Source: Shigella phage TB004. Taken from it: DNA of 64,000 bases. Within the stretch, counting starts at the first letter, position 1; each line of letters starts with the position of its first letter. A program made the translations under genes and the position numbers. Below the pieces are notes generated by a model. It made no database searches and had not been told where the DNA came from. It saw nothing but the letters and a program-made list of their open reading frames with translations. The stretch lies in sequence record MW822011; one strand, written 5' to 3'. Shown here piece by piece: positions 51,428-53,243 of the stretch.

Positions 51428-52042
51428 ATGAAAATGAAAATGCAAAGTGATTTCAATTCAATGTTTGAAGAGTTCCAAAGACAGGTTGATGTTCCAGACC
51501 AATTACTAAATGCTCTTAAACGTATGGCAGAAGGACGTAATTATTATTGGGGTTCTTCATATGAAACTGATGAAAGTCTTTCTGGAAGATTTTCCAGAGG
51601 TAAAAAGTCTTTAATACGTCCTGGAATACTTATTAACAATATTGAATCAATTCATTTATTGACATGTGATTTTGATGTTGAATTTACTGATTTCATTTCT
51701 CCTGAATGGACAGTTTGTTATTTAAACGACGATTTTGATTATCTCGGTGTTTATAGTTTAAGTGACGCATGGTTTAAACGTAACTTACAAAAGTCAAATT
51801 TATTCTATATTGATACTACAGTAAAATTTCAGGGAAAGAAATATTTCTTTACTCTTATAGTTGATTCTGAAACGAAGCATGAAAATAAACGTATTCTTAG
51901 TAAAAGAAATATCTTGAATATTGTTGATGATCTTTTTGATAAATTAGTGGAAAATCCTAATTTTGAAAGTGATTTATTACTAGAAAAATTTGTTAAGGAA
52001 TGTAGAGAATATGTCAAAGCCATCACTATACCTTCCAAGTAA
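51428..52042 (+). CDS. hypothetical protein, member 1 of tandem family (soluble)
   Basis: 204 aa; C-terminal EKFVKECREY motif shared with next three genes. Confidence 0.55.
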   Translation: MKMKMQSDFNSMFEEFQRQVDVPDQLLNALKRMAEGRNYYWGSSYETDESLSGRFSRGKKSLIRPGILINNIESIHLLTCDFDVEFTDFISPEWTVCYLNDDFDYLGVYSLSDAWFKRNLQKSNLFYIDTTVKFQGKKYFFTLIVDSETKHENKRILSKRNILNIVDDLFDKLVENPNFESDLLLEKFVKECREYVKAITIPSK

Positions 52043-52403
52043 ACCTGTGAAGTATGAACTAAAGCGTCAGCTAATTCCTACTGATGTATTAATAGGTCCT
52101 GTGACAGCTATATCATTTGTAATTCTATTGATTGTTGGAATGGTTATAGACTTTATGACTGATATTGAATCTGGCGTAATATTTTTGTTAGTATTAATTC
52201 TTCCATTAGTAGTTCCATTTTTATTGGTACCTGTAAATTGGGTAGGATATTGGTATCAAGGAAGGCATTATCGTAAACGTGTACGTGAATGGAAAGCTCA
52301 GTGTAAAAAGATTGAAAAGGAACACCGGCTTAAACTCGCTGCGTATGAATTTGACGAAATTATGAAATTTGTTAAGGAATCACGATGCAAAAGCCAAAAC
52401 TAA
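52011..52403 (+). CDS. small membrane protein, family member 2
   Basis: 130 aa from MSKPSLYLPSKPVKY; two hydrophobic helices; C-terminal FVKESRCK. Confidence 0.55.
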   Translation: MSKPSLYLPSKPVKYELKRQLIPTDVLIGPVTAISFVILLIVGMVIDFMTDIESGVIFLLVLILPLVVPFLLVPVNWVGYWYQGRHYRKRVREWKAQCKKIEKEHRLKLAAYEFDEIMKFVKESRCKSQN

Positions 52404-52759
52404 ATAAAGTCAAATATTCGCTTCCTGAGTCATTTTTAATTTTTGCTGTGGCGTTGGCTGCAGCTCTTGCCGGTAGTCTTATTGGATTAATGATTGACTG
52501 TATTATTTTAAACATCCGCAGTAACGTCAGCGGTATAGTAGATATAATAGAAGTTTGGAGTGAACTTCATTATACTATAGCAATTTCATTATTTTCATTC
52601 TTTAGCATCATTTTATATTTTCATTATGATAATTTTAAAATAAATTGGCAAAGAAAAAAGGATTACAAAATACAATTAAAAGAATATAATAACTACATGT
52701 CTTATATTGAAAATGAATCAATGAAAGAGTTTGTGAGTGATTGTAGGAAAATCAAATGA
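52385..52759 (+). CDS. small membrane protein, family member 3
   Basis: 124 aa MQKPKLNKVKY...; two hydrophobic helices; C-terminal EFVSDCRKIK. Confidence 0.55.
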   Translation: MQKPKLNKVKYSLPESFLIFAVALAAALAGSLIGLMIDCIILNIRSNVSGIVDIIEVWSELHYTIAISLFSFFSIILYFHYDNFKINWQRKKDYKIQLKEYNNYMSYIENESMKEFVSDCRKIK

Positions 52760-52860
52760 TTTTAAAAACTCGCTGGTATGATTTAGATGATGGGGACGAT
52801 GGCATTTCAGTCGATAGAGTTGACTGGAGCGGCTGTTCCGAAGATATGAAAATTTGCTGA
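52756..52860 (+). CDS. very small acidic ORF (34 aa), not in ORF track
   Basis: ATG overlaps previous stop (ATGA); MILKTRWYDLDDGDDGISVDRVDWSGCSEDMKIC. Confidence 0.3.
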   Translation: MILKTRWYDLDDGDDGISVDRVDWSGCSEDMKIC

Positions 52861-52874
52861 TTAGGGAGTTTAGA

Positions 52875-53224
52875 ATGGGATATCAACCAGTTAAGCCATC
52901 TACTGCAACAGATGATAAATTCGTGTGTATTCGAAACGGCCGCGCTAAATTAACGAACGCTGATTGGTTTACAGGCAAGAATATGCTTCTATGGTATATC
53001 ATTAGTCTTCCTGTGTCATCATTCGTATTTTATTTCTTTGGAAAAAATCCAATGGATAGAATAGGAGATTGGGCTCTTTTTACTCTGCTTGTTAATATTT
53101 TTATAACAGCAATACTATCAGGAATATGGTGCGTGTTCATTGAAATGCCATGGCGGTTACGTAGACAGCAAAAGATTTTTGATGAAAAGAAATATACTCA
53201 AAATTTAAATAATTTTATCACCGA

Positions 53225-53243
<19 letters not shown>
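52875..53243 (+). CDS. small membrane protein, family member 4
   Basis: 122 aa from MGYQPVKP; two hydrophobic helices; C-terminal [10 protein letters not shown]. Confidence 0.55.

Follow-up and report, generated by a model that had tools for sequence, protein, structure and literature searches.

About half of the genes of bacteriophage T4 are still without a function, e.2 to e.6 among them. Translationally coupled cistrons with embedded Shine-Dalgarno (SD) sequences, joined by ATGA or longer overlaps, are common in the early operons of this phage. In the hyperplastic regions of T4-type genomes, modular shuffling is mediated by PeSLs (promoter-early stem-loops), intergenic units made up of a sigma-70 promoter and a terminator hairpin (PMC2839356, PMC4122927). 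Knock-downs of T4 e.2-e.6 by CRISPRi-ART were classed as 'Not Fit', with no fitness effect (PMC11879866, supplementary files 8 and 15), and beyond these supplementary tables no functional studies of e.2-e.6, Y06M-Q or msp4-6 were found in the literature.

The locus described here lies in Shigella phage TB004 (sequence record MW822011), of which a stretch of 64,000 nucleotides, referred to below as the window, was analysed. The source genome belongs to Tequatrovirus (T4-like), with 506 Tequatrovirus records matching at 90-96%, and the four genes of interest are orthologues of T4 e.5, e.4, e.3 and e.2, all of which are annotated as hypothetical. T4 annotates e.2-e.5 at the syntenic place, between e.6 and nudE/e, which bears out the guess of the original prediction that T4 e.2-e.6 are the counterparts. 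The window genes and T4 e.5/e.4/e.3/e.2 (msp4-msp7, GenBank L13089) are the same genes, being about 85-98% identical; e.3 has 124 aa in the window and 120 aa in T4. The databases treat the four genes as separate families (Pfam PF26876, PF26873 and PF26896; PHROGs 2607, 2604, 2330 and 2203); the locus holds no new family, only members of known uncharacterised ones, and the earlier label "uncharacterized" still applies. The genes and their flanking signals are as follows.

50723..50751, + strand: promoter-like site TTTACA-17-TATAAT upstream of e.6, 11/12 consensus matches
50793..51386, + strand: e.6 orthologue, the upstream neighbour, soluble, 197 aa counted from the ATG matching T4 e.6 (phrog_1203, E = 1e-85)
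51389..51409, + strand: G+C-rich hairpin of the AAGGGGCTTCGGCCCCTT type between e.6 and e.5, the palindrome having been detected on the - strand
51428..52042, + strand: e.5 orthologue, soluble, no transmembrane segment (phrog_2607, E = 7.5e-109, positions 2-203 of 203)
52011..52403, + strand: e.4 orthologue, 130 aa, two predicted transmembrane helices (phrog_2604, E = 1.9e-70, residues 1-130 of 130)
52385..52759, + strand: e.3 orthologue, 124 aa, two predicted transmembrane helices (phrog_2330, E = 3.8e-62, residues 1-122 of 122)
52756..52860, + strand: N-terminal remnant of e.2, a 34-aa ORF (phrog_2203 residues 1-32, E = 1.6e-13)
52875..53243, + strand: C-terminal ORF of e.2, 122 aa, two predicted transmembrane helices (phrog_2203 positions 47-166, E = 7e-54)
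53225..53680, + strand: nudE, encoding a Nudix hydrolase, with which the coupled block ends downstream

The site at 50723..50751 is probably the early promoter of an e.6-e.5-e.4-e.3-e.2-nudE unit; the T4 record L13089 annotates -35/-10 signals at the corresponding place before msp3 (e.6) and a putative stem-loop after it. Judged from the sequence and the T4 annotation, e.5-e.4-e.3-e.2 would form a run of overlapping early accessory genes that are presumably translationally coupled. The start of nudE is likely at 53240 rather than at 53225, and the endolysin gene e follows at 53716-54210. On the minus strand only short ORFs of 69 aa or less were present, and an Rfam scan of 50600-53800 found no RNA family.

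Three of the four genes are intact members of their families. The e.5 product has 204 aa if translation starts at 51428 and 202 aa with the start at 51434, which corresponds to that of T4; it matches the T4 e.5 profile over its full length, has a Mosigvirus orthologue that carries PF26876 (Phage_T4_Y06P), and ends in EKFVKECREYVKAITIPSK. The e.4 product, which ends in MKFVKESRCKSQN, is likewise a full-length match to its family, and all 99 of its homologues carry PF26873 (Phage_T4_Y06O); e.3, ending in KEFVSDCRKIK, has 45 homologues, the T4-type e.3 included, and matches PHROG 2330 over its full length. Members of the e.2 family (PHROG 2203/PF26896) have about 162-166 aa with an N-terminal soluble domain, and no ORF of the window matches the family in full: alignment with phages P8 and T4 places a 1-nt deletion in the A-run at 52849-52852 that splits the gene, which in most relatives is undivided and encodes 162 aa. 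The 122-aa ORF begins at an internal ATG preceded by GGGAG (52864-52868), and identical 122-aa forms are carried by other phages; T4 e.2 is also broken, but by a different frameshift. The window e.2 is thus a disrupted or N-terminally truncated family member. Of the predicted tandem of four related small proteins, the four ORFs on the + strand and their common tail motif stand, whereas the ORF at 52875 is part of a split gene and e.5 is a soluble protein of 202 aa that matches the others over only about 15 C-terminal residues.

It is the C-terminal motif that unites the block. The expression F[VI].[ED][CS]R, which was defined post hoc, has exactly four matches when the 64 kb window is translated in all six frames, all at the C-termini of e.5, e.4, e.3 and e.2 and 3-11 residues ahead of the stop, against a mean of 0.4 matches in shuffled sequence. 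Searching with an HMM of the motif, trained on the four families together with orthologues, gives only the four ORFs (E from 1e-4 to 7e-4; next match 0.12). The motif proposed from the letters alone is therefore real, short as it is for an argument from similarity, and in extended form, (L/I/M)-x-x-F-(V/I)-x-(E/D)-(C/S)-R, it ends each of the four proteins. Neither the shared tail motif nor the junction modules were found in any annotation or publication in the literature on e.2-e.6, Y06M-Q and msp4-6. The motif copies and the repeats around them are listed below.

51986..52001, + strand: exact 16-nt repeat AAATTTGTTAAGGAAT, copy 1 (repeat family D6)
51989..52006, + strand: e.5 motif F-V-K-E-C-R, with AAGGA in the K-E codons, 11 nt before the e.4 ATG
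52365..52380, + strand: exact 16-nt repeat AAATTTGTTAAGGAAT, copy 2 (repeat family D6)
52368..52385, + strand: e.4 motif F-V-K-E-S-R, with AAGGA 6 nt before the e.3 ATG
52730..52747, + strand: e.3 motif F-V-S-D-C-R, found by the regular expression
52742..52759, + strand: junction module TGTAGGAAAATCAAATGA, encoding C-R-K-I-K-stop; it contains the SD AGGAAA, and stop and start overlap in ATGA
53214..53231, + strand: e.2 motif F-I-T-E-C-R, found by the regular expression
53226..53243, + strand: junction module TGCAGGAAATTAAAATGA (family D1), encoding C-R-K-L-K-stop; it contains the SD AGGAAA and overlaps by ATGA with 53240, probably the true start of nudE

Mosigvirus and Gaprivervirus retain the motif in e.5, e.4 and e.3, Dhakavirus, a genus without e.4, has it in e.5, e.3 and e.2, and fDHCT2 and Klebsiella Kanagawavirus have it in e.2; it persists in five Tevenvirinae genera while overall identity drops to about 20-33%. 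The e.5 tail shows no variation at E-C-R-E-Y in four genera; in the e.5 alignment the invariant columns are grouped at L183, F186, E189, C190, R191, E192 and Y193, and between genera BLASTP detects similarity in the 15-aa tail only (E = 2e-4). In e.4 the cysteine position is occupied by S, I or V, so that the cysteine is not essential to all copies. Estimates of dN/dS, from only 5-7 closely related sequences, were 0.06-0.17 with normal dS in the cytoplasmic tails and 0.37-0.73 in the membrane/loop part. The motif is thus selected as a peptide.

By Kyte-Doolittle hydropathy, e.4, e.3 and e.2 have two hydrophobic segments each and e.5 has none, in agreement with the prediction that three of the four proteins possess two transmembrane helices, and the distribution of K and R in these three fits an N-in/C-in arrangement. 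The topology is based on hydropathy and the positive-inside rule rather than on a dedicated predictor or an experiment, and by that rule all four motifs are predicted to face the cytoplasm. In e.4, e.3 and e.2 a two-helix membrane hairpin would thus be followed by a basic cytoplasmic tail with the motif at its tip. An AF2 model of e.4 (pLDDT 80) consists of helices 24-49 and 54-129, that is, of a hairpin and a single long helix that extends to the motif; the cytoplasmic helix of e.4 and e.3 comprises about 45-55 residues, and the tail motif of the four proteins, lying in a predicted helix, would form a hydrophobic face. For e.5 the single-sequence AlphaFold model was unusable (pLDDT 39.6), and PDB sequence searches with a cross-genus profile of e.5 and with e.6 returned no relatives.

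On balance, we lean towards a reading of the e.5-e.2 block as dispensable accessory genes whose products carry a selected, dual-coded cytoplasmic tail motif that may act as a docking helix. The common tail would be presented at the inner membrane by soluble e.5 and by three membrane anchors, the tails of e.5 and of e.4/e.3/e.2 would bind either one common cytoplasmic partner or each other, and the membrane and periplasmic portions, which evolve fast, would be turned towards a host component that varies. A more specific form of this proposal, in which e.5 and up to three interchangeable anchors (e.4, e.3 and e.2) assemble through the tail helix on a single host or phage target, seems unlikely to hold as stated. 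Were it true, the block would encode a modular early membrane complex of Tevenvirinae that has so far gone unrecognised, its diversifying membrane and periplasmic hairpins could be specificity modules, for instance against membrane-bound defence or exclusion systems, and the dual-coded junctions would allow in-frame swaps of anchors.

The original prediction had the small membrane proteins act in superinfection exclusion, anti-defence or host takeover. T4 Imm and Sp would be proteins of a comparable kind. Their position in an early region behind a promoter-like site, their inner-membrane hairpins with fast-evolving, mosaic membrane and periplasmic segments, and the fact that the genes are laboratory-dispensable and frequently lost or broken are all in keeping with such roles. 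However, none of the characterised exclusion or anti-defence proteins resembles the e.2-e.5 products in sequence or fold: scans of all ORFs against Pfam, NCBIfam, PHROGs and PADLOC yielded nothing beyond the genes' own uncharacterised families, PADLOC giving a single sub-threshold match of e.4 to a 4TM effector (E = 0.034), and when viral structures were searched by fold with the e.4 model, only e.4 orthologues were retrieved. This role is a possible one, though doubtful, and it overlaps with the docking-helix explanation rather than excluding it. Among other functional assignments, the names 'sulfurtransferase', 'site-specific RNA endonuclease' and 'host specificity protein' given in records have no profile support, and e.5 was rejected as a PD-(D/E)xK nuclease, as the D...E-T-K residues are not conserved in Mosigvirus or Gaprivervirus e.5.

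Similarity among the four proteins is concentrated at the gene ends. End to end, e.4 and e.3 align with an hhalign E value of 8e-6, better than 60/60 block-shuffled controls (best 2.3e-4), but the similarity resides in the N-terminus and the last 23 residues, and with both ends trimmed the middle parts give E = 0.046, with no detectable membrane-core similarity. Profile comparison of e.3 with e.2 (E = 1e-5) aligned only the last 21 columns, the tail comparisons of e.5 with e.3 and with e.2 gave E = 2e-4 and 3e-4, respectively, and e.4 against e.2 was not significant (E = 0.022). A merged e.4+e.3 profile searched against 1.84 billion representatives had nine matches, all of them e.4, e.3 or fragments, e.2 and distant relatives being absent. 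The three membrane proteins do have a collinear architecture and common termini (two segments, N-in/C-in, a basic tail ended by the motif), whereas their membrane cores do not behave as one paralogous family; since neither the trimmed e.4/e.3 cores nor e.4 against e.2 reach significance, common descent is not proven.

Relatives show gene loss and fusion in this block. In Gaprivervirus the e.4 cassette is flanked by AAAGGGGTTCAAAATG and AAGGAGGTTCGTAATG, its two ends being 13/16 nt identical; Dhakavirus has the arrangement e.5-AAAGAGGTTCAAAATG-e.3, with e.4 absent; five UFV phages have an in-frame e.4::e.2 fusion at a common TCCTGTGACA, with e.3 deleted and the architecture kept; and in one relative e.2 is absent and e.5 frameshifted. 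Losses and fusions of cassettes have thus taken place in relatives at junction repeats and at one other short common stretch. In 2.9 million viral contigs the exact 23-nt module TTTATTAAGGAATGYMGNAAATG has only four occurrences; one genus carries it at the end of e.2, another at the end of e.3. Near-identical pairs are lineage-specific, with 16/16 nt shared by e.5/e.4 in the window and 20/22 nt by e.5/e.3 in Mosigvirus. An IMG/VR scan for further loci returned five. Of the suggested serial duplication or module shuffling, the shuffling gains from the cassette losses and fusions in natural variants, while the e.4 and e.3 cores show no detectable similarity.

These observations are what might be expected if unrelated cores and e.5 had acquired a mobile junction module, consisting of the tail codons, the SD, the ATG and the first codons M-x-K-P-x-L, that recombination or gene conversion had carried from one gene boundary to another, the similarity then stemming from DNA exchange and not from a common protein function. 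Similarity confined to gene ends, the lineage-specific pairs (16/16, 20/22 and 13/16 nt), the 23-nt module at different genes in different genera and the indels and fusions at such repeats all agree with concerted evolution of this kind. It leaves unexplained, however, the strong purifying selection on the peptide across five genera in the presence of synonymous change, and among the 60 best Tequatrovirus matches to a synthetic junction no precise e.4 deletion between the 16-nt repeats was found, all being normal two-piece matches. As an account of the tails in place of the docking helix, module transfer is improbable, though it is compatible with a functional motif and does not exclude one.

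The junctions themselves are compact. The overlap is 32 nt between e.5 and e.4, 19 nt between e.4 and e.3, and ATGA between e.3 and the 34-aa ORF, and the 18-mers at 52742-52759 and 53226-53243 agree at 15/18 positions. The overlaps of stop and next start claimed for each gene thus exist, at 4 to 32 nt, but the ATGA at 52756 opens the 34-aa ORF (52756-52860) and not the ORF at 52875. The downstream SD, AAGGA or AGGAAA, is 5-11 nt before the next ATG and is made of motif codons, AAGGA (AAG-GAA) being read as K-E and AGGAAA (AGG-AAA) as R-K, in accordance with the prediction that the C-terminal codons double as the ribosome-binding site of the downstream gene. All K-E copies examined at the DNA level encode the motif lysine by AAG, which accounts for 25% of the lysine codons of the window, and in e.3 and e.2 the motif arginine is AGG, only 4.8% of its arginine codons. 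The codon choice is thus tuned to the downstream SD as well, making the sequence dual-coded.

It might then be argued that the tails resemble each other only because the next overlapping gene needs an SD and a start codon, and that the peptide is functionless. The SD before every downstream ATG, the rare AAG and AGG codons and the depressed dS in the e.5 tail that overlaps e.4 (0.04 in the last 22 codons) speak for such a constraint, and the last of these indicates that the overlap does add to the conservation of the e.5 tail. Yet the F and V/I codons, and in the AAGGA (K-E) copies the Cys codon, are not part of the SD, and all of them are conserved in five genera; the motif arginine is variously AGA, CGA, AGG or CGT, a synonymous variation; the e.2 tail has a dS of 0.28 with a dN of only 0.018; and the motif occurs in no other overlapping gene pair of the window. 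In VR20, e.5 keeps F-I-A-E-C-R-E-Y with the SD-free codons GCT GAA TGT CGT, the e.4 SD being a separate AAAGGGG 10 nt further on, which rules against similarity confined to the overlapping ribosome-binding nucleotides. Nucleotide constraint alone is accordingly quite unlikely to account for the motif. Least probable is a role as holin- or antiholin-like lysis regulators just upstream of e, to which the class II architecture (two transmembrane helices, N-in/C-in and a charged C-terminal tail, a likeness of architecture only) and the proximity to e could be brought, since e.2-e.5 have no holin family match in Pfam, NCBIfam or PHROGs, T4 lysis is already served by holin T, encoded elsewhere, the promoter is of early type, knock-downs are without fitness effect, and e.2 is disrupted in T4 and in the window phage with viability retained.

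A six-residue motif in four adjacent proteins and five genera offers a concrete, if modest, lead to function: it can be mutated, serve as bait, or be used to probe a joint action of the four proteins. It is also a clean natural example of dual coding, combining a peptide motif with a ribosome-binding site, and it shows that, in the hyperplastic regions of T4-type phages, genes are gained, lost or fused in frame in company with short repeats within coding junctions, besides intergenic PeSLs. In practical terms the weight of the finding is modest, because the genes are dispensable in the laboratory and restricted to one phage subfamily.

Compared with known systems, e.4, e.3 and e.2 resemble T4 Imm and class II holins such as S21 in having two helices, an N-in/C-in topology and a basic cytoplasmic C-terminal tail, but they differ from these in the much longer cytoplasmic helix of e.4 and e.3, and there is no sequence, profile or fold match. 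With PeSL cassettes the locus has in common short repeats at gene boundaries, a non-essential hyperplastic region, and gene gain, loss and fusion at the repeats. Unlike PeSLs, the junction repeats are part of overlapping genes, where they comprise tail codons, SD and start codon, and neither a promoter-like nor a terminator-like site coincides with them, the only promoter-like site and the only hairpin being apart from each other, before and after e.6, respectively. As in translationally coupled overlapping cistrons, the SD lies in the last upstream codons and stop and start overlap, here by 4 to 32 nt; however, ordinary coupled junctions impose no common peptide upstream, whereas at this locus the same six-residue motif is found in four neighbouring genes and in five genera.

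The four adjacent early genes under study, orthologues of T4 e.5, e.4, e.3 and e.2, end in a common motif, F-[VI]-x-[ED]-[CS]-R, located 3-11 residues before each stop, and the four C-terminal sequences quoted in the original prediction were confirmed. In a six-frame translation of all 64 kb, the regular expression F[VI].[ED][CS]R matched four times, always at these tails (mean of 0.4 in shuffles), and a motif HMM retrieved the same four ORFs with E-values from 1e-4 to 7e-4, the next match being at 0.12.

Features of the e.6-e.2 region
50723-50751, promoter-like site 5' of e.6
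51389-51409, hairpin 3' of e.6
51428/51434-52042, + strand, e.5 (204/202 aa)
52011-52403, + strand, e.4 (130 aa)
52385-52759, + strand, e.3 (124 aa)
52875-53243, + strand, C-terminal part of e.2 (122 aa)

The window belongs to a Tequatrovirus genome whose plus strand corresponds to the T4 minus strand; 506 phage records match 51300-53700 at 90-96% identity, and the syntenic T4 genes are e.6, e.5, e.4, e.3, e.2, nudE and e. An older T4 record names these genes msp3-msp8 and annotates a promoter 5' and a stem-loop 3' of e.6, in agreement with the site and hairpin found here. Each of the four ORFs matches its own PHROG over its full length, and recent Pfam families (Phage_T4_Y06P, Phage_T4_Y06O, PF26896) cover homologues, with no functional assignment from any family library scanned. 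All four genes belong to T4 families (e.2-e.5) that are known but uncharacterised, e.2 being a disrupted member. An Rfam scan of the region matched no family.

In some GenBank/RefSeq records matching 50793-52759, 'sulfurtransferase' is the name given to e.3 and e.4, 'site-specific RNA endonuclease' that given to e.5 and 'host specificity protein' that given to e.6. These names find no support in Pfam, NCBIfam or PHROG profiles and look like propagated mis-annotations. The e.6 gene itself (50793-51386) is strongly conserved across genera, with only weak, sub-threshold matches to spanin, LysB and holin-type families. A resemblance to membrane-remodelling proteins of the PspA/IM30 type is one seen by eye, with neither a Pfam nor a PDB sequence match in support. 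Upstream, a cluster of 10 tRNAs at 47288-48241 (Gln, Leu, Gly, Pro, Ser, Thr, Met/CAT, Tyr, Asn, Arg) leaves no space for the homing endonuclease gene segB, the equivalent position in T4 holding 8 tRNAs and segB.

Two transmembrane segments, as had been proposed, were recovered by hydropathy in each of e.4, e.3 and e.2, and none in e.5. In the three membrane proteins Lys and Arg are concentrated in the N- and C-terminal segments and are few in the inter-helix loops, a distribution that fits an N-in/C-in topology, so that the motif would be cytoplasmic. In an AlphaFold model of e.4 (pLDDT 80), helix 24-49 forms a hairpin with a continuous helix, 54-129, that extends to the motif; a fold search with e.4 gave no informative match, PDB sequence searches with an e.5 cross-genus profile and with e.6 found no relative, and a single-sequence model of e.5 was of too low quality for use. 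Among database proteins, P0196, an e.4 variant of 69 aa, has neither transmembrane helix but keeps the head and cytoplasmic tail; in P0099, on a 703-nt contig, the first ~30 residues of e.4 are followed by an HTH_11-like sequence, possibly through chimeric assembly.

Whether these proteins form one family, as originally proposed, was only partly borne out. Pairwise BLASTP similarities were marginal (e.4-e.3, E = 0.09; e.3-e.2 tail, E = 0.003) and within-genus profiles too shallow (Neff 1.2-1.6); orthologues were therefore added from Mosigvirus (JK42, RB69), Gaprivervirus (VR20, VR7), Dhakavirus (IME540, B-01, IME08), fDHCT2 and a Klebsiella Kanagawavirus. With these profiles, e.4 and e.3 aligned end to end (114 columns, probability 84%, E = 8e-6), all controls being worse (reversed, about 0.1; best of 60 column-shuffled, 0.0076; best of 60 block-shuffled, 2.3e-4). 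The signal is located in the N-terminal M-x-K-P-x-L and the last 23 residues, and with both termini trimmed the middle was not significant (E = 0.046). The e.3 and e.2 profiles matched over the last 21 columns only (E = 1e-5), e.5 matched e.3 and e.2 by its tail only (E = 2e-4 and 3e-4), and e.4 against e.2 was not significant. A shared tail in all four, a shared e.4/e.3 head and the common architecture of three membrane proteins thus stand, but the e.4/e.3 core does not support common descent at a significant level. A merged e.4+e.3 profile retrieved nine proteins from 1.84 billion representatives, all of them e.4, e.3 or fragments thereof, and the group is restricted to Tevenvirinae.

The tail could be a by-product of the downstream ribosome-binding site, and part of the evidence points that way: the motif codons supply the next gene's SD (AAGGA from K-E, AGGAAA from R-K) using rare codons (AAG, 25% of Lys codons; AGG, 4.8% of Arg codons in the window), and dS is depressed where the e.5 tail overlaps e.4. 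At the protein level, the motif is kept in every orthologue examined while the remainder of each protein diverges.

Tails across genera
e.5: FVKECREY, FIMECREY, FIAECREY, FITECREY
e.4: FVKESRCK, FVKEIRCK, FIKEVRNG
e.3: FVSDCRK, FIKECRK, FIKECKS
e.2: FITECRK, FIEECRK, FIKECRK, FIKGCRD

In the e.5 alignment, seven of the 20 columns that are invariant fall in the tail, and between T4-type and Gaprivervirus e.5 the 15-residue tail is the only similarity detectable by BLASTP. The motif Arg is encoded by AGA, CGA, AGG or CGT, and in VR20 e.5 the codons GCT GAA TGT CGT contain no SD, that of e.4 being a separate AAAGGGG. Rough Nei-Gojobori estimates from 5-7 Tequatroviruses gave dN/dS of 0.06-0.17 with normal dS for the cytoplasmic tails and 0.37-0.73 for the membrane and loop parts, which are visibly mosaic among close relatives. 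Both protein-level and nucleotide-level constraint act on the tail.

Overlaps measure 32 nt at e.5/e.4 and 19 nt at e.4/e.3, and the junction downstream of e.3 is ATGA. This ATGA (52756) opens not the 52875 ORF but one of 34 aa, which is the N-terminus of e.2; compared with most relatives, whose e.2 has 162 aa, a deletion of 1 nt in the A-run 52849-52852 severs it from the remainder. The rest restarts at an internal ATG preceded by GGGAG, and e.2 of the window is inactivated or N-terminally truncated by this deletion. T4 e.2 carries its own, different pair of frameshifts. The intact protein has a conserved N-terminal soluble domain (W-x-x-L-D-D...I-D-W-x-G-C), traced as far as a Klebsiella Kanagawavirus. 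For nudE, the T4 RefSeq-style start (ATG 53225, 151 aa) is without SD and falls within the codons of the e.2 motif; ATG 53240, with an ATGA overlap with the e.2 stop and AGGAAA 8 nt upstream, gives the 146-aa product of older T4 records (X57093, 'orf, 146aa'; L13089, msp8), and the upstream ATG is not kept as an ORF start in Dhakavirus.

In the window, an exact 16-nt repeat, AAATTTGTTAAGGAAT, is present at the ends of both e.5 and e.4, and the codons after each downstream ATG are also alike. In Mosigvirus a 20/22-nt repeat is shared by the ends of e.5 and e.3, the Gaprivervirus e.4 cassette is flanked by AAAGGGGTTCAAAATG and AAGGAGGTTCGTAATG, and Dhakaviruses, in which e.4 is absent, pass from e.5 through AAAGAGGTTCAAAATG to e.3. 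Among 2.9 million viral contigs, the 23-nt module TTTATTAAGGAATGYMGNAAATG occurs four times; in Dhakavirus it is the end of e.2, in Mosigvirus that of e.3. In five UFV isolates e.3 is deleted and e.4 is fused in frame to e.2 (e.4::e.2), the join lying at the shared TCCTGTGACA inside transmembrane helix 1; in one relative e.5 is frameshifted and e.2 missing. None of the 60 best Tequatrovirus matches showed a precise deletion from one 16-nt repeat to the other. A second tandem array lies 3' of e.3 in Mosig-, Gapriver- and Dhakaviruses (loci L005:3691-4957, L004:3731-4525, L007:3351-4389 and L009:3351-4374) and is absent from the window; its 3-5 small soluble ORFs (65-101 aa) all end in G-x-W-(V/I)-S-S-S-x-x-C or W-Y-x-S-S-x-x-C directly before the stop, with the next start ~10 nt away. 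It is another case, in the same hyperplastic region, of neighbouring genes with a common C-terminal motif.

In a CRISPRi-ART study, T4 e.2-e.6 are listed as function unknown and their knock-downs as 'Not Fit', i.e. without fitness effect (PMC11879866, supplementary files 8 and 15). From the anatomy of the proteins we infer, as the preferred mechanism, that all four would each offer the same short helix on the cytoplasmic side, through which they would dock on a common partner or on one another; soluble e.5 could thereby be tethered to interchangeable membrane anchors, whose variable parts, in the membrane and periplasm, would be turned towards a host component that also varies. The observation behind the original prediction is real and its interpretation partly right; the genes were already known, and what is new is the shared dual-coded tail and its tie to cassette flux, a modest lead. 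The membrane proteins have the same architecture as class II holins and Imm-like proteins and match neither. The junction repeats are not PeSLs, the promoter-early stem-loop cassettes of T4-type genomes, because they carry no promoter or hairpin and consist of coding sequence at overlapping gene junctions.
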